A stretch of DNA of 64,000 nucleotides. It comes from Minutocellus sp. GHC0000111 (Eukaryota). Below are positions 30,761-38,376 of the stretch, in pieces. The stretch spans positions 1,984,001-2,048,000 of the forward strand of contig OZ361261.1 of the NCBI GenBank assembly GCA_977018835.1, read 5' to 3'. A program made the position numbers and the translations under genes. Position 1 is the stretch's first letter. The number at the start of each line of letters is the position of its first letter. The notes below the pieces were generated by a model. The model did no database searches. It had not been told where the DNA came from and saw only the letters and a program-made list of their open reading frames with translations.

Positions 30761-31193
30761 ACCTGTTCGTGGCCGAAAAAGTCTCTCGCCTCAAAACCAC
30801 TCTAAACCTAGCTACATGCGTAAAAGTCAACTCCTGCACCTGAACTTCACAAAGTCAATTCTTGCACCTTTAATTTTACGTAAAGTGCTGCCATTAACCA
30901 TGTGTACAAGATCGACTGGATTCCTATTGCGATCGTGTAAATGTCTACGCTACGTAGAGAGGAAAAATTGTCATCATAGAGGAAAAATTGTCATCATGCG
31001 CCAGATGCGTGCTGCAGAATAGCACTACGTACGTACATGTAGTAGGTCTGCTTGCATGATGTCATCTCGAAGCTAATGGCTCCTCAAAACATCACTTTCT
31101 GTCGATTGGCGCCCCCAACGCGCCATCGCAACACAACCACAGAGAAGATACGCCAGGTGCACGGACGGTACCGTTTCCTTTTATTACGCAGCC

Positions 31194-34100
31194 ATGGGTA
31201 ATTGTCTTTCATCTGGTGGTTCGGGTGCCGCGTCGGTGAGTTTTGTTGGATTTCAATGTAGTTTTCATCCCTTACCCGTTGTTCTGCCTGCTCCCACAAC
31301 AATTGAGCATCAGCTGACTGTTCGAACGATTTATTATGTATGTGTGTGATGACCAATCGTCATGCGCGGGTGCAGATCTGATTGATCTGTATGCAATGTG
31401 GGACTTCTCGTTCGTTGAGCCACGCTGGCACCACCCTCAGGTACTTTGTTTTCATTATACATCCTTTCATACTTTCGCCCCGTCGCCAACTGACAACATT
31501 GCATCATTCCAAACTTTCGCACTTATTATGCCGGTTCTCCACCTCCGTCGGACGCTTATTGTTCCTCACCCTCCCCGCCCCTGCGCATGGACAACAGAAG
31601 TCGGCCGCGACTCCACAGGCCGGTTCCGCTGGTGGTTCCAGTAAGGGAAAGAAGTTTGCCGACTGCTACAAGACTGGCAAGACTGTAAGTATTATTGTTG
31701 CCTTCTCGCCGGTCACAAGTCAAGTCATTCCAGCACTAATGTCGGCATTGGATCAATCATACATGTACCAACACAACAATTGGCCTCACACTGTCGTCGC
31801 CACTCATCTATTCTTTCCCCACACACTCACAGCTTGGCGAGGGTGCGTTTGCCGTTGTGAAGCAGGGCACCAAGAAGGGCACTTCCGAGTCATATGCCAT
31901 CAAGATTGTGACCAAGGCCAAGCTGACCGAGGAGGATGATTAGGCGCTGCAGGATGAGATTAGCATCCTCATGGAAATGCGTCATCCGCACATCATTCGG
32001 CTGTACGAAACGTTTGAGGATCCTAAGTTTTATTATCTGGTGACCGAGGCGATGTACGGCGGAGAGCTGTTCGATCGCGTCGTGGCCAAGTCGTACTACA
32101 ACGAGAAGGAGGCTCGCGATGTGACCAAGATTCTGCTCGAGGCGCTCAAGTATTGCCATTCGCAGCAGGTTGCGCACCGTGATCTCAAGCCCGAGAATTT
32201 GCTTTTGCAATCTCCCGATGATGATTCGCAGCTCAAGATTGCCGACTTTGGATTCGCCAAGAGATGTACCGGCGGTGACGAGTGCTTGACCACTCAGTGC
32301 GGTACTCCTGGGTATGTTGCTCCCGAGATTTTGGAGGGAGTGCCGTACGGTACCCAGAGTGATATGTGGTCGATCGGTGTTATTGTCTACATTCTGCTTG
32401 GCGGATATCCTCCGTTCATCGAGCAAGATCAGAAGCGTCTCTTCTACCGTATCCGCAAGGGACAGTACGAGGTGAGTTTGCTTGTGACTGTATATAGGAA
32501 TTCATGCTTTGATATGTGTTTTGTGCCACAAACATATTTCGACTAATGATTGTGATACATGATGAAATTTCACAGTTCCACGAGGAGTACTGGGACAGCG
32601 TCTCCAAAGATGCCAAGGATTTGATCTCGTCGATGCTCACGGTCGATCCAAGGAAGCGCATTACTGCCAAGCAGGCTCTTAGCAACTCGTGGATTACCGG
32701 ATCGGATGCCAAGCTTGCGGCGATGGATTTGGGCAAGAATCTAGAGGAGTTCAAGAAATTCAACGCCAAGCGCAAGTTCAAGGCTGCCGTCAAGGGTGTG
32801 ACGGCAGCCAATATGATGAAGAAGTTCATCGGCGGTGCCAAGGGTACCAGCCTTGAGCGGAAATTGACCGAGGATGATGTCGCCGATCTCAAGGAGACAT
32901 TTGACATGTTTGACAAAGATGGAGGCGGATCGATATCTCAATCAGAGCTCAAGTCTGTGTTCGACCGTTTGGGCATGAAGGTATCAGATGACGAAGTGAT
33001 GGAAGTTATCAAGTCTGTTGATGAGAACTTCGACGGCGAAGTGGATTTCAACGAGGGTGAGAAATAATTGTTTCGAGAATTTTGTTGTGAATTCCTTCCT
33101 GTGTGTTATGCCTCGCTTTGACTCATCATTGCTCTATTTCGTATTTCGTATATCTCTGCAATTGCAGTGAGTCTTTTAATTTGGGGTTTGGCTATGGCTA
33201 TGGCTTAGAGGTATTGTTTTGCAACGAGTTGTGTTTATTCCGGCCATTCGATTTTGTGCTACTGGCGGTTGATACCGTCCGACAAGTCCCGATAGCAGCA
33301 ATCTTTTGGCAATGTGATTGGACTTGGTATGTGAGTACCCCTGTACAGTATGATTACATGATCGCACAGAATGCATTCTATTGTTTGGTTACAACTGATC
33401 TTCTCGTTGCCACTACCTCACCTCCGATCCCTCCGCGTACCACTGTTCTCAGTCGGTCTTGGCCTTTGGCTTCTTGTCCAAGTCACCTCCGTCACCAGCG
33501 GCACCACACTCACCAGCGGCGGAGGCAGCAGCATTCTTTTTCTTGAGGCGATGGCCTTGCAGATACTTGAGCTTTCTGATGTGAGCGTCGAAAGCTGGCT
33601 GCACCCAGCAATAGGCAAATTCTGGCTTTCTGAGCCACGGATGGTCCTTGATCAGCCGCTTCTTGGTGTATGGGCTCGTGTCACTACGGAGGGCGACCTT
33701 GCGGTCGCGGACCAGATCGAGGGCGCCTTCATACTCGACCAACGCGCAGGAGAATATTCCACCACGACCACGGCTGGTATGCTCGCCCGCACCGATTCTC
33801 TGCCAGAGGCGACGTTTGTCGAACCGGTACTCGTATTGGGCGAGCTCCTCGGCATCGAACGCCAGCTGCTCGCGACCTACCCCCGTGTGCAGCATACGAA
33901 TGGAAATGATACCACCACTACCGAAATCGTCCACAGAAAGAGGCGTTCCATCGATTTTGAGGACGAGCGGCCCGCGATGGGCTCGGAGCATGTGAGCAAT
34001 GTGCTCATTGCCTCTTTGGCCTAGGCCCGGACCCATGTACCCACCCTTCGAGGCCATGACCAACGAGGTGGGCTGAGCTCTCTCCATAAAGGCCTTGGTC

Positions 34101-35360
34101 TCTGCGGCGATCTGCGTAAGCTCGTGAGACGTCGCCTTTGGCTGGACCAAGACTCTGGTAGCAGCGACCTCCTCCCGCCGACGTCGATGGTGTGCGGCTG
34201 TTGCGATGGTGACTCCAGCCCTCACCTTCTGCCAGAAAGCCTTCCTGCTCTCCCAGTTCTCTTTCGCGACGTGGCCGTGGGCGAGGCAGCCGAAGGGGAT
34301 GGACTGGCGTTGACCGTTGAGGTAATCAACTTCGACCACCTCGTTCTGCTCGGGATCAAAGATGGCGAGGATCTTTCCCGAAGCATCAAACTCTTCCCCA
34401 TACATCTCAATGGCGCAATCAGTGCAGGTGATACCACCGACACTAGAATGAGAGCGATTGTAGCAGCCGAGATTGGCGCACTCTTTCTTGCCATCCTCTC
34501 TTGGCGGAGCATCGGCGGGACGGTTGCGCTTCGATGCCGGGGCATCGGGCTTGTTCGCCTTGCGAGCCTTGGAAGCCTTTTGGGAATCGCGTTTGCCCTG
34601 CTTGTTCTTCTCCCACTGGGCCTTGACCTTCTCGACGTCCTCATCGGCCACGTTCTTGGAGACCATGGACCACGTCAGGATCGGATGTAGACCATTTGGG
34701 GAGTACTCGAGGGTCTTAATCTTGCCGCCATCCAAGCGGTCGCGATACTCGGTGAATTTGCCTTTCGAATTCTTGGTATCCTCGACGCCATACTCGTCGA
34801 GAGAGCATTGGGTGCAAAGCAGGCCAGCGGTGTTCTTGTGAGCCCTGTTCGTACAGCCGGTCTCGGCGTTGTCGCTGCACAAGACCTTGCTTCCAGCCAT
34901 TGTTCTTCAGCGATGATGGTACTCGAAGCGGTGGCGGTGGAGCTTGAGACTGTGATAGTGCTCTGGCCTTGACCGTTGCTTTTTCAAATCAGATCTGTTT
35001 CAAATTTTTGAAAAAAAAAATGAACATGTGCTGCATTTTTCGGAATATGTGCTGCAGTTTTCGTTATATCCTTTCAAATAGTATCTCCTTGTTCTCACCC
35101 CCTTTCTTCTTGCTATGTCCCTACAGTTCCTGGCAATGATGAAGAAGATGCCCGATTCGGAGAATGAATTGAAAGAGGCATTCAAGGCCTTCGATGCCGA
35201 TGGTGACGGCACGACGTCGAAGGATGAGCTGAAGAAGATCTTGGCTAAATTCGGCCAAACTCTCACAGATGCCGAGCTCGATGCGGTTATGGCCGAGGTC
35301 GATACCGATGGAGATGGAGAGATTGACTACGAGGAATTCAAACGTGCGATGGAAGCTTAA
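31194..35360 (+). CDS. Calcium-dependent protein kinase (CAMK kinase domain + 4 EF-hands), predicted N-acylated
   Basis: join(31194..31235,31598..31684,31833..32471,32576..33055,35127..35360); MGNC start, LGEGAF, AIK, HRDLKPEN, DFG, APE; four EF loops; in-frame TAG at 31941-31943. Confidence 0.9.
33056..35126 (+). other. Candidate [D1,2] spliceosomal twin intron: internal intron 33057-33167 lies within the donor of the external intron
   Basis: GAG|G[GTGAGA...TTGCAG]TGAGTC...CTCAC...CTACAG|TTC; two-step excision restores DFNE-FLAMM in frame. Confidence 0.7.
33449..34900 (-). CDS. Nested intronless gene of unknown function with two Cys4/His repeats
   Basis: Uninterrupted 483-aa ORF lying entirely inside the CDPK intron; repeats C..GCTNRAH..CTQC..YG and C..GCYNRSH..CTDC..YG. 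Confidence 0.8.
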   Translation of the reverse strand: MAGSKVLCSDNAETGCTNRAHKNTAGLLCTQCSLDEYGVEDTKNSKGKFTEYRDRLDGGKIKTLEYSPNGLHPILTWSMVSKNVADEDVEKVKAQWEKNKQGKRDSQKASKARKANKPDAPASKRNRPADAPPREDGKKECANLGCYNRSHSSVGGITCTDCAIEMYGEEFDASGKILAIFDPEQNEVVEVDYLNGQRQSIPFGCLAHGHVAKENWESRKAFWQKVRAGVTIATAAHHRRRREEVAATRVLVQPKATSHELTQIAAETKAFMERAQPTSLVMASKGGYMGPGLGQRGNEHIAHMLRAHRGPLVLKIDGTPLSVDDFGSGGIISIRMLHTGVGREQLAFDAEELAQYEYRFDKRRLWQRIGAGEHTSRGRGGIFSCALVEYEGALDLVRDRKVALRSDTSPYTKKRLIKDHPWLRKPEFAYCWVQPAFDAHIRKLKYLQGHRLKKKNAAASAAGECGAAGDGGDLDKKPKAKTD

Positions 35361-35740
35361 ACAATTTTTTTGATGCCGGTAAAGGGATGTGTTCATTTGA
35401 GATTTCATAGTGCTACACGCCCGTGGCGAGTCGTTTGGCCTGTATACTATTGCTCAAGAATAGTATTCCTGATAGACTCATTAATGTCAGTGAAAGGATT
35501 ATTTGTTAGGATTAGTTTGCGTATAGGTATCCGGCCGTGCTGGCTGAATCATTGCTGCCTGGCCTGCTGACTTCGATTTTCCCCGCTTTTTTCTCAAAAA
35601 GGGAATGCCCCCGTCTGGTCCATTCCATTTGCTCGTCGCCGCCGACCTGTTGACTGCCTGGGTCTCTGGGTCTTTCTGCATGCCCTCTGCCCGGATGCCT
35701 TGCCTGGATCAATCAAGCAGAGCACTCATTCGTACCCAGT

Positions 35741-37792
35741 ATGCTTTTTTGGCGTTTGCTGGGTCCACTTTGCGCGTATCTGTTTAGCCTCACATCTGTA
35801 AGCGCATTCTTTATGTCATCCGGCCTGACGCATACGCACGACGAAAATTTGAATAACGCCAAGTCGGCAAAACGTCAGAAATTGCAAGCATCTATTGAAG
35901 AAGCAATGTCTGATGCAAAAGCACACACTGACGATGTTGTTTTGCGTGCTGTCGAGTTAGTTTGCAAAAATACCGGCGCTACCGTTGGAGATAGAGATAT
36001 CGAGGAGACCTTCGGGCTGCTGAGAAAGCTTGAGAATTCGGCATTTGAGTATTATTTGTCGACGGATGAGATACCAGTAGCAACCAAAACTGAAGCCAAT
36101 GGCCGCCCAACGACAGAAGAATTAGCACACCAAGCCCATGCAGCGGCAGATGCACTTCGCAGGCTGATGCTACATTACGGCACATCCGGCGGGAAAGGCC
36201 GCAAGGCAATCAAAGATGTAGCAAATGGTCTTGCATCCTACTCGAATGATTCAACCAAAGTCCCAAAAGCACTTGCCTCGGTCTTGGTTGTTTCAGCTCT
36301 TGCAATCGGCGATCAAAATTGTGACGACCATAGGGGTTTAGCGCGGGCGGCTGCGAGCGGTGTGCTGCCAAACAAACCAATCAGTGATGACACATACAGC
36401 ATATTGGCCGTACAAGCAGTCAAACAACTTCTTGGCATTGCATTGGGACATGAAACATATATTGTTGATATTCACATCGTTACATCCATCTGCCGATCAT
36501 TTGTTCAAAATGCAACTGAGCTGCAATTGGAATGCTCCAAAGTCGTTAGTTCAATATTTTGCCTTCCCAAGGATGAAAACATCGACGAAAATACGAAATT
36601 ACCGGAAGTTGGAAAGATCGAGACCGCTGCTGCTCTTGCTCTGTCGGCTCAGATTGGTCCGTGGAAACATATCAAGCCCGCCGTATTGGTTGAGATTGCT
36701 ACAGACATGAACTTGTGGTCGGCTGCAGAACGCATATGTTCATCGGCAATAAAGACGGCTTCAAAAGCAGATTGCGAAGATGCAGTTCTGGTTCTCATCG
36801 AGAGCGCAGGCGCAGCCGCGCAATATCGGCAAATGGATTCCTTTGCTACTGAATTTTATGATCATGGTGGTCGCTTGAAATTTGCCGAGGCCAGACTTCT
36901 GCACGCGTACGACACAATCACGAAAGTTGCTGCACGACGAAAATTTCCCATAATCGAGAAACAAATTGAGAGGGTGGACCGTGCCTTCGAAAGGGTCAAG
37001 ATTGACCTACAGGACGGAGAAAACTACGATGATGCCGGGCCTATCGAGGCTCGCGATTTTGCAATTACGAAACTTGTCGAGCTTGGTGAGATTGAGGCGG
37101 CCCATCGTCTTGCAAAATTGTGGGGGCGAGATTTCGCATACGATGACAAAGAGTTGGAGCGCATGGCAAAGGCCCGAAAAGAAAAGTATCTCCAATGGGA
37201 GGAAACGGATGTAGGAAGAAGTAGTATGATTCAAAATGTATTGTCGGACCCTTCCTTATTTCTTGCAGAGTACGACGAAATGATATCGGACCTTGGCAAT
37301 TGTGTCGGCATGGATTGCGAGTTTTTAGACGAGCAAACGAAAGGGGTGGCGTTGTTGCAACTCTCAACCATATCAAAGGCTCTTCTTGTCGATATACCGG
37401 CCCTTTCGGCGACTGAAGAGGGTTGCAAAGCGCTGCAGTCTACCATTGGGGTTTTATTTGCTGGTGATTCCCCCGTCGTAGGATTTGCCTGCGGTGAAGA
37501 CGTGCGGAGGCTGCGAGCATCGCCATCTGTCCTTGACACGCACTGGCTCGGTAGCTCACGCGCAGTGGTCGATATCAAACCACTCATTGCGCATCATTCA
37601 TCCGAATTGCGGCACACAGGCTTATCGCGAGCGTGCGAAAAATACCTCAAGAAGCCACTGGACAAGTCCGAACAGTGCAGTTTGTGGATGAACAGGCCCT
37701 TATCGCTTAATCAACGAAAGTATGCTGCTCTTGATTCTTTCACTTGCGCTGCTATTTATGATATATTGCCAGATGATATTAAAAATAAATAA
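35741..37792 (+). CDS. DEDDy 3'-5' exonuclease, MUT-7/EXD3-like
   Basis: VGMDCEF, LLQLS, GLSRACEKYLKKPLDKSEQCSLWMNRPLS..YAALDS; long helical N-terminal region. Confidence 0.85.
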   Translation: MLFWRLLGPLCAYLFSLTSVSAFFMSSGLTHTHDENLNNAKSAKRQKLQASIEEAMSDAKAHTDDVVLRAVELVCKNTGATVGDRDIEETFGLLRKLENSAFEYYLSTDEIPVATKTEANGRPTTEELAHQAHAAADALRRLMLHYGTSGGKGRKAIKDVANGLASYSNDSTKVPKALASVLVVSALAIGDQNCDDHRGLARAAASGVLPNKPISDDTYSILAVQAVKQLLGIALGHETYIVDIHIVTSICRSFVQNATELQLECSKVVSSIFCLPKDENIDENTKLPEVGKIETAAALALSAQIGPWKHIKPAVLVEIATDMNLWSAAERICSSAIKTASKADCEDAVLVLIESAGAAAQYRQMDSFATEFYDHGGRLKFAEARLLHAYDTITKVAARRKFPIIEKQIERVDRAFERVKIDLQDGENYDDAGPIEARDFAITKLVELGEIEAAHRLAKLWGRDFAYDDKELERMAKARKEKYLQWEETDVGRSSMIQNVLSDPSLFLAEYDEMISDLGNCVGMDCEFLDEQTKGVALLQLSTISKALLVDIPALSATEEGCKALQSTIGVLFAGDSPVVGFACGEDVRRLRASPSVLDTHWLGSSRAVVDIKPLIAHHSSELRHTGLSRACEKYLKKPLDKSEQCSLWMNRPLSLNQRKYAALDSFTCAAIYDILPDDIKNK

Positions 37793-38064: not shown

Positions 38065-38376
38065 TTACTGCGCCTTGTATCCAATGGGAGTATTACCAGG
38101 CTTGTCAGTGTATGGATGAGGCCTCATCCATCCCACCGGCGGTACGAGGAAGGCCAACACCATCGATCCGGCGACGTATTGGCAATACTTGATTCCATTC
38201 TCGCGATCAAAGTAGGCCAGGAATGGCAACACGAAAAGAAACATTGTCGCAAGATTGATCACTATTGACTTGGGGTCCAAGCCTGGATTTAGGGAGGATA
38301 AAGAGAAGACGGGATAGTGAGTGAAAAGCGTGGCGGGCAGGAGGACTGGCTGACCACATAAATATGAGAACATCAC
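38065..38376 (-). CDS. Possible small membrane protein, 5' end unresolved
   Basis: 103-aa ORF with two hydrophobic segments; no family recognised. Confidence 0.3.
   Translation of the reverse strand: MMFSYLCGQPVLLPATLFTHYPVFSLSSLNPGLDPKSIVINLATMFLFVLPFLAYFDRENGIKYCQYVAGSMVLAFLVPPVGWMRPHPYTDKPGNTPIGYKAQ

Follow-up and report, generated by a model that had tools for sequence, protein, structure and literature searches.

How does a complete protein-coding gene come to lie antisense within a spliceosomal intron of a diatom gene, and did it make the intron that carries it? In the window, meaning the whole 64-kb stretch of DNA analysed here, this question is raised by the last intron of a CDPK gene from a Cymatosiraceae-like diatom, a spliceosomal twin intron (stwintron) of the [D1,2] type. 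The host gene and this intron comprise:

31194..35360, forward strand: host CDPK gene of 493 codons, kinase plus four EF hands (Pfam Pkinase, EF-hand)
31194-31235, 31598-31684, 31833-32471, 32576-33055 and 35127-35360, forward strand: host exons, all four joints seen in RNA
31941..31943, forward strand: in-frame TAG at host codon 80 (unchanged in same-species runs), a position at which cluster members have Lys
33056..35126, forward strand: [D1,2] stwintron of 2,071 nt, genomic ends GG..AG, removed whole in RNA run X8
33057..33167, forward strand: internal intron of 111 nt, GTGAGA..TTGCAG, which interrupts the donor G|TGAGT; an X7 RNA contig lacks just this intron
33331..33452, forward strand: further canonical 122-nt intron within the external intron (X6 joint 33330-33453, GT..AG)
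35081..35126, forward strand: 3′ end of the external intron, common to intron-bearing relatives (read-ins in P0035 and P0039)

The [D1,2] layout consists of G33056, the internal intron (33057-33167) and TGAGT, with an external intron of 1,960 nt. As the preliminary description of this DNA had remarked, the size is out of line with the neighbouring introns of the host gene, which have RNA support and measure 362, 148, 104 and 111 nt. Both splice products are present in RNA. The intermediate, lacking the internal intron only, is represented by one X7 contig whose joint skips 111 nt (depth 5.7), a form that could equally be a stable alternative isoform; the mature join skipping 2,071 nt, found in at least one of the four RNA runs, is represented by one X8 contig (255-nt side, depth 9.25). 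Only this full join keeps the host frame, other splice orders leading to a stop or a frameshift. From the frames we infer that the inner intron leaves first, because its removal rebuilds G|TGAGT, and that the outer intron, nested gene included, would leave second. The joint of the 122-nt intron comes from one X6 contig with a 30-nt side, and its acceptor overlaps the stop codon of the nested gene. Rfam returned 0 matches over 33000-35200, and the 9-mer junction was found in 0 of 144 loci.

The [D1,2] stwintrons of ascomycete fungi (Aspergillus lipS; Hypoxylaceae; PMC5639578, PMC9024468, PMC12403724) likewise start with GG and have an internal U2 intron that separates G1 from U2 in the external donor; for these too, intermediate and mature RNA were both detected, and gain and loss occurred at single positions. 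In contrast, the present host is a diatom, the external intron holds a whole protein gene and a further intron, the total is 2,071 nt whereas the longest case from one length-limited search in Hypoxylon had 313 nt, and no [A2,3] route exists because the next exon starts with T. The stwintron literature found concerns fungi, with no diatom case by title or abstract start, and twintron work on diatoms is organellar among the matches listed.

The opposite strand of the external intron encodes the nested gene:

33449..34900, reverse strand: nested intronless gene, 483 aa (ORF list; relatives P0002-P0004; RNA contigs X6, X7, X8 and X10)
34901..35042, reverse strand: 5′ leader and promoter side of the nested gene, common to a relative of 74% identity
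35022..35063, forward strand: tandem duplication of 21 nt at 90% identity, close to where the cassette likely ends (repeat family D11)

An intact, intronless antisense reading frame had been described here, and its coordinates, a shuffle test and relatives all bear it out. The frame ends in TGA and fills 74% of the external intron; the longest ATG-initiated frame in 2000 base shuffles of 33168-35126 had a median of 100 aa and a maximum of 254 aa. RNA contigs lie over it in all four RNA runs (X6, X7, X8, X10), and, these being unstranded, such cover could stem from unspliced host RNA. Among the matches listed, X6 leaves 33096-33259 and X8 leaves 33063-33515 without cover while the ORF is covered, and one X6 contig ends at 34989, within the leader. 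A 45-codon read-in of P0006 aligns to 35042-34915 with 59 bits, a score matched by 0 of 300 shuffles. By their names, two full-length relatives out of three are complete ORFs from transcriptomes. The nested gene is likely transcribed from its own promoter. With two out-of-frame rows set aside, its GC3 of 0.69 is close to that of the CDPK gene (0.65) and of GMP synthase (0.72) and thus gives no sign of foreign origin.

Did the gene make the intron? The preliminary description raised this possibility, and the intron-bearing relatives argue against it. X15, a run under another species label that is DNA-like because it has no spliced joint at three ordinary introns, matches the window across the inner intron and as far as 33176, and then continues for ~231 nt unlike the window. 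The nested ORF has no X15 match at 82% among the matches listed, though introns 1-3 match, and P0030 ends at the same inner-intron stop. Since the inner intron and the rebuilt donor persist in a relative whose outer intron departs from the window after 9 nt, the nested gene looks like an insertion later than the twin intron. In addition, an X15 paralogue seems to carry this extra-G junction too, at the end of an EF hand. At the other end of the intron, the P0035 and P0039 read-ins align at 35081-35126 (0 of 300 shuffles as good for each), the stretch ahead of these last 46 nt being not significant alone (77 and 152 of 300). We rejected the idea that these read-ins are a short empty outer intron, because their distal part scored against the 5′ flank of the window as shuffles do (101 and 245 of 300). 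Since the shared leader reaches the 3′ region of the intron, the relative of 74% identity may occupy this intron too, and the insertion would then be older.

The account that we favour, at roughly an even chance of being correct, is that a lineage-restricted cassette of ~1.9 kb entered, in antisense orientation, the outer intron of a two-step twin intron that was there before it; the cassette would be transcribed on its own and spliced away with the intron when the kinase message matures. This nested cassette is likely young and selfish, with a possible nuclease activity, and it would persist as a passenger that the intron hides from selection. The intron site also looks young, given the intron-free relatives described below. 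The selfish reading proposed earlier is consistent with the patchy presence at the site and the fragmentary relatives, which would fit a dispensable insert equally. As for the host, the TAG at codon 80 is unchanged in 7 of 7 same-species runs compared, from four studies (eight of the 24 runs listed were compared with the window, X15 among them), and Lys80 is present in all 13 cluster members that cover the position. Recoding of TAG was rejected as an explanation, given that, on inspection of the frames listed, it breaks no recognisable conserved frame other than that of the CDPK gene, and that relatives have Lys. The host CDPK in this lineage is likely decaying. Both the length of the intron and transcription head-on to the host may have interfered with host splicing; the insert and the nonsense codon gained by the host are correlated in one lineage only.

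The encoded protein is composed of two repeated modules and a basic C-terminal domain:

34559..34888, reverse strand: module 1, residues ~5-114, C-x7-C-x12-C-x2-C followed by a predicted hairpin and helix (alignment)
34166..34489, reverse strand: module 2, residues ~138-245, C-x4-C-x12-C-x2-C (alignment)
33536..34099, reverse strand: conserved basic C-terminal domain, residues 268-455 (alignment of relatives)
33800-34039, reverse strand: GIY-YIG-like core Y288..R296-x3-H300..E351..W366-Q367 (pattern written after seeing the sequences)

The doubled cysteine pattern noted earlier recurs in both modules (C8, C16, C29 and C32; C141, C146, C159 and C162), which align over ~103 residues at 28% identity (E 2.7e-12, pairwise test). 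Across eight modules from four proteins the four cysteines are invariant, but the His of the motif as first written is present in six of eight and its NR is not conserved, indicating C4-type rather than C3H-type modules. The basic linker between them was also correctly recognised, with 15 K/R and a pI of 10.6 in residues 98-140. Module 1 is the sole part of the AF2 model at pLDDT 50-70, and the 64-kb window holds no other module copy. The protein is probably nuclear and would bind nucleic acid via the two C4 zinc modules and the linker.

For the C-terminal domain, a likeness to GIY-YIG nucleases had been suggested, and it survives as a lead only. The GIY-YIG-like residue order, a post hoc pattern, occurs in all 5 members tested and in 19 of the 25 proteins of the I-TevI family; it did not turn up once in 20,000 column shuffles or in 17,976 other ORF residues. 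In four proteins the YIG motif reads YMG, YIG, YIG and FIA (Gly to Ala in one of the four), the arginine-helix position is R in two and K in two with an invariant His four residues further, and E351 is invariant (4/4), with I-TevI-like spacing and in a predicted low-confidence helix. In the Atlas listing for the protein, no family other than GIY-YIG is named (score 0.85, again a lead only); a second Atlas query, confined to named clusters, gave no usable match. On the other side, the GIY tyrosine, the general base, is missing, with V/I/F/W at the nearest position in 4/4 proteins, and profile comparison with three phage GIY-YIG families stayed at shuffle level (hhalign 12.0-13.1 against medians of 11-11.6), in a weak test that only TevI/EndoII passed of three control pairs. 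The fold check proposed earlier yielded neither a housekeeping nor a GIY-YIG fold, AlphaFold with four sequences giving uninformative models (pLDDT 34-39) and Foldseek no match at E 0.001. Nothing exceeded the cut-off in Pfam, PHROGs, NCBIfam, PADLOC or PDB sequences, transposases and nucleases included; the weakest Pfam leads below it were DUF4085 (E 0.002) and the Rhp7 treble clef (E 0.045). With I-TevI, T4 endonuclease II and SegG (motif roles: PMC3045582), the domain has in common a YIG-like motif, R/K-x3-H, E ~60 residues on, an aromatic-N/Q pair ~15 further and a Cys-rich module in the same protein. It differs in lacking the GIY tyrosine, in its short hairpin spacing and null profile scores, and in lying C-terminal to two 110-residue repeats. 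The domain has an even chance of being a divergent GIY-YIG-like nuclease, with a putative activity.

An alternative to the selfish cassette, possible if rather doubtful, is an ordinary taxon-restricted cellular gene, for instance for a DNA-repair or RNA-binding zinc-finger protein, that moved once into the intron and was kept by selection. The host-like GC3 agrees with this, as do the 232 invariant columns among four full-length relatives and a relative's cluster of six near-identical records, four of them named transcriptome ORFs. The gene is moreover single-copy: among the matches listed, no second copy of at least 88% identity occurs in the X1 or X3 contigs (the second record of each consists of 18-nt pieces), which speaks against a multi-copy element, and no further copy lies elsewhere in the 64-kb window. 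Mobility marks are absent, since neither TIR nor TSD could be found, as the preliminary description had stated, and candidate ends match over 6 nt at best. That description held that a single-copy gene at conserved synteny with a housekeeping fold would speak against a selfish element; single copy was found, a housekeeping fold was not. Selection for a cellular role is harder to reconcile with the divergence of the protein, which is 55-79% identical overall to its relatives (74/59/55% for P0002-P0004) and at most 79%, whereas its neighbours reach 96-99.7% (GMP synthase) and 91-99% (host exon 4). Word-seeded searches of 5.8 billion proteins returned just five clusters of relatives, X15 gave no match to the nested gene among those listed, and two records are fragmentary (in P0009 the similarity stops after residue 425 of the nested protein, and P0010 covers a C-terminal portion). 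Searches sensitive to close relatives only found none in metagenome contigs, viral contigs, prokaryote genomes, phages or plasmids. The C-terminal extension of P0004 failed to match the 3′ flank, 58 of 300 shuffles being as good. Opposite-strand nested intronic genes are known from animals. Such genes are similarly intronless and antisense with their own promoter side, whereas here the host is a compact diatom gene with other introns of 100-360 nt and a donor that must first be rebuilt.

Could the insert instead be a homing endonuclease gene? In this unlikely scenario, a divergent GIY-YIG-like endonuclease gene colonised the spliceosomal twin intron, and its putative cleavage of an intron-free CDPK allele near the EF-hand 2 junction would let repair copy intron and gene into that nuclear protein gene, as group I intron endonucleases do. 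The residue order given above would suit such a role, and close relatives seem to differ at the CDPK site, which is found with the nested gene, with an intron or with no intron. Relatives' proteins read through the site or stop at it: six of seven cluster members read through, two of them (P0029/P0031) with an intron-3 read-in, and genomic L001 has no intron there. X15 appears to hold both intron states, one side of its second, intron-free join spanning just 29 nt at a likeness of 82%. Together, these point to an intron-free cognate state, a candidate that may reflect alleles or paralogues, and P0029/P0031 could be partly spliced RNA. Intron state does not track the flanks, the window differing from the read-through P0029/P0031 at 1 of 141 aa and from the intron-bearing P0030 at 7, but 4 of 6 inner branches of the exon-4 tree are unresolved, and precise intron loss by cDNA recombination gives the same pattern (PMC5639578). 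The leader common to the 74% relative runs into the intron end, which favours homing, but X15 has an intron-bearing copy without the nested gene at 82% among the matches listed. The nuclease would also be C-terminal, as opposed to N-terminal in I-TevI, and without the catalytic tyrosine (role: PMC3045582). Antisense homing endonuclease genes do exist in nuclear group I introns (Didymium L2066, I-DsqI; PMC9548176). The present locus resembles them in having an antisense protein gene in a nuclear-gene intron and, apparently, intron-free alleles; in contrast, the intron here is spliceosomal, lies in a protein gene, and has no Rfam and no His-Cys family match.

Very improbably, the insertion of the gene itself created the twin intron, the gene then being an autonomous, introner-like element that provided the splice sites. 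Intron creation by transposons is known in algae (PMC9860276), and the present position is young, L001 lacking the intron, much like recent introner gains where the site is empty in relatives. However, the inner intron, the rebuilt donor and the 3′ end are common to relatives in which the gene was not seen, the X15 paralogue seems to have the extra-G junction as well, and the locus lacks a repeated family, TIR and TSD, carries an ORF and far exceeds the introner family medians of 30-654 nt (PMC9860276). An assembly artefact or chance reading frame has a negligible probability: X5 has single-contig indels in the ORF at 33604, 34262 and 34707 (depth ~5), but X6 RNA covers these positions without them, full-length relatives exist, the frame exceeds every shuffle, X1 and X3 carry 30800-35700 in one piece with 0 differences (and may be the window's own source), the left intron end is bridged independently by RNA X7 record 19 and X5 record 10 and the right by X5 record 12 (34578-35599), and the X8 join spans exactly the stwintron, which refutes the misassembly that the preliminary description had considered.

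The locus is a diatom stwintron with RNA for intermediate and product that carries a gene and is ~7x the largest in one fungal survey. With three apparent site states among close relatives, whether the intron or the inserted gene came first can be tested directly, as can homing. If the protein does not cut, the locus remains an instructive case of a nested gene whose host gene is dying. If it cuts the empty site, this would be an endonuclease-driven spliceosomal intron, a combination for which the literature found concerns group I/II introns by title, and it would offer a direct mechanism for intron gain and for the spread of stwintrons.

The 483-aa frame lies within the last intron of a plus-strand calcium-dependent protein kinase (CDPK) gene, whose product comprises a kinase domain and four EF hands and is encoded by five exons and 493 codons.

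33055, plus strand: end of exon 4 of the host CDPK gene
33056-35126, plus strand: twin intron
33057-33167, plus strand: internal intron, which interrupts the external intron's donor
33449-34900, minus strand: intronless nested gene
35127, plus strand: start of exon 5 of the host CDPK gene

As the preliminary description had it, the antisense ORF is intact, and it is far longer than chance allows (longest ORF in 2000 shuffles: median 100, maximum 254 aa). With the region in one piece in the sequencing-run contigs X1 and X3 (0 differences from the window, of which they may be the source), independent runs bridging both its ends and no misassembly at the intron ends, a possibility raised at the outset, an assembly artefact or chance frame can be set aside. 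Among 7,990 scored candidates, the nested protein has three full-length relatives (74, 59 and 55% identity), two of which are named complete transcriptome ORFs; C-terminal profile searches added one fragment only. Unstranded RNA contigs cover parts of the nested ORF in all four RNA runs, from two studies. In RNA run X6, cover stops at 34989, 89 nt above the nested gene's ATG; none falls in the bin that spans the inner intron. A 45-codon upstream read-in of one relative matches 35042-34915 (59 bits; 0/300 shuffles), and the leader therefore belongs with the nested gene. This 5′ end (34975-35063) holds an AT-rich near-palindrome and, next to it, a tandem duplication of 21 nt; the 74% relative has the same near-palindrome and at least one unit of the duplication.

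The 2,071 nt between exons 4 and 5 begin with GG, and the first G is followed by a 111-nt GT..AG intron and then TGAGT. One RNA contig (X7) lacks only the 111 nt and another (X8) lacks all 2,071 nt. This sequence fits the definition of a [D1,2] stwintron in PMC5639578. With a one-step cut starting at the inner donor, a G stays behind and the frame is shifted; if the outer donor is used before the inner one, the inner acceptor is lost and a stop results, so the inner intron would be removed first and then the outer. Joints of introns 1 and 2 are present in 4/4 RNA runs, and the full 2,071-nt join in one of the four. RNA run X10 retains the inner intron, and X6 has spliced out a further canonical 122-nt plus-strand intron (33331-33452), whose acceptor CAG overlaps the nested gene's minus-strand stop codon; together these contigs, which carry no proportions, hint at mixed processing. 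The 33331-33452 intron may add a third splicing step, or it may lie in the 3′ UTR of a truncated kinase isoform that has its stop ~40 nt past the rebuilt donor. A second match to a loose twin-intron pattern, at 38141 on the plus strand (176 nt, poor motifs), is probably chance.

The host CDPK is damaged and likely decaying. Its codon 80 (31941-31943) is TAG in all seven same-species runs, from four studies and including spliced RNA. Among the 14 of 15 non-window cluster members listed, all 13 that cover these positions have Lys at codon 80 and Glu in place of the window's Ala116, and distant kinases have a sense codon at the TAG position in all 57 aligned stretches. No other recognisable gene of the window is TAG-broken, and no second kinase copy at 88% occurs in the X1 or X3 contigs. 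The transcribed, spliced CDPK is likely a young pseudogene; alternatively, there may be readthrough or a restart at Met 31971. The neighbouring GMP synthase is 97% identical to a record named Minutocellus polymorphus, a Cymatosiraceae diatom, in the same 90% cluster. Immediately 3′ of the kinase is an intronless-looking gene (35741-37792, plus strand) with a C-terminal 3′-5′ exonuclease domain (PF01612, E 1e-10).

The nested protein has the tandem cysteine modules and basic linker first described, with ~110 residues per module, all four cysteines invariant in 8/8 module copies, and a basic C-terminal domain; it would bind zinc and be nuclear. The suggestion of a GIY-YIG-like nuclease domain is no more than a lead. 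A relaxed GIY-YIG pattern, composed after viewing both sequence sets and hence with inflated odds, occurs in 19/25 I-TevI-family proteins, at the same place in all five nested-protein family members, in 0/20,000 column shuffles of all four rows, and in none of the window's other long frames. Against this, the family libraries gave no match, profile scores were at shuffle level (in a test recovering only one of three true pairs), and the protein lacks the tyrosine identified as general base in PMC3045582. The protein-cluster Atlas returned a GIY-YIG cluster at a score of 0.85, under its reliable range, and a second query was blank. The protein should not be classed as GIY-YIG; the chances that it works like such a nuclease are roughly even.

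The proposal of a selfish element in a spliceosomal intron draws support from the patchy site, from two fragmentary records among the relatives, and from divergence, the nested protein being at most 79% identical to its relatives versus 91-99.7% for neighbours. Weighed against these are host-like GC3, the lack of any TIR or TSD, as originally observed, and a single copy at ≥88% in the X1 and X3 contigs. A selfish passenger cassette is thus an evenly balanced proposition. The evidence against mobility would suit a resident orphan gene, a possible but lesser candidate. A homing endonuclease is unlikely.

At the twin-intron site, no intron is present in genomic locus L001 (~75% identical). Of 61 loci the closest is L002, which also reads through, though its sequence may be cDNA. 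In the exon-4 90% cluster, 6/7 other members read through, two with intron-3 read-in and a 1/141-aa difference, and four whose sequence gives no sign whether they are DNA. A related protein record, P0030, ends at the position at which, in the window, the inner intron closes the reading frame. All five other exon-5 cluster members start in intron sequence, and in both tested the last 46 nt of the intron are homologous to the window's (0/300 shuffles). Run X15, labelled as another species, behaves as DNA because three ordinary introns show no spliced joint. One X15 copy is joined across the site without the intron, to be taken with caution as one side is just 29 nt. Another stays similar to the window across the inner intron, as far as 33176, followed by ~231 nt more (by record orientation) unlike the window, and the nested ORF has no X15 match at 82%. 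We infer that the twin intron is older and the cassette (~33177-35042) later, or that X15 holds a much diverged relative. The suspected link between the nested gene and the twin intron's origin was not borne out: with the X15 copy keeping the inner intron without an ORF match, the gene is very improbable as the twin intron's maker. The extra-G junction of a paralogous EF-hand gene, described below, is a second hint in this direction. Over 31236-33176, X15 has introns 2 and 3 in two versions, one close to the window and one replaced, suggesting that its organism has a pair of diverged alleles or paralogues, which differ at the twin-intron site too.

The arrangement is real and unusual, and stwintrons and nested genes are each already known kinds. 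Among the papers that the literature search listed, with most subscription papers outside its coverage, there was no diatom stwintron and no gene within one; the papers drawn on for stwintrons and related matters were PMC5639578, PMC12403724, PMC9024468, PMC3045582, PMC9860276 and PMC9548176. L001, with no intron at this EF-hand 2 site, does carry one of ordinary phase-1 type within EF-hand 4 (L001:1912-2036), which shows intron turnover within the CDPK family. A paralogous EF-hand gene, a loose end behind 35323, is spliced in X7, X8 and X10, and its X15 counterpart seems to have, in 30 letters only, an extra G plus GTGAGT at the same EF-hand position, after the loop; it is possibly a second [D1,2] stwintron in the lineage.
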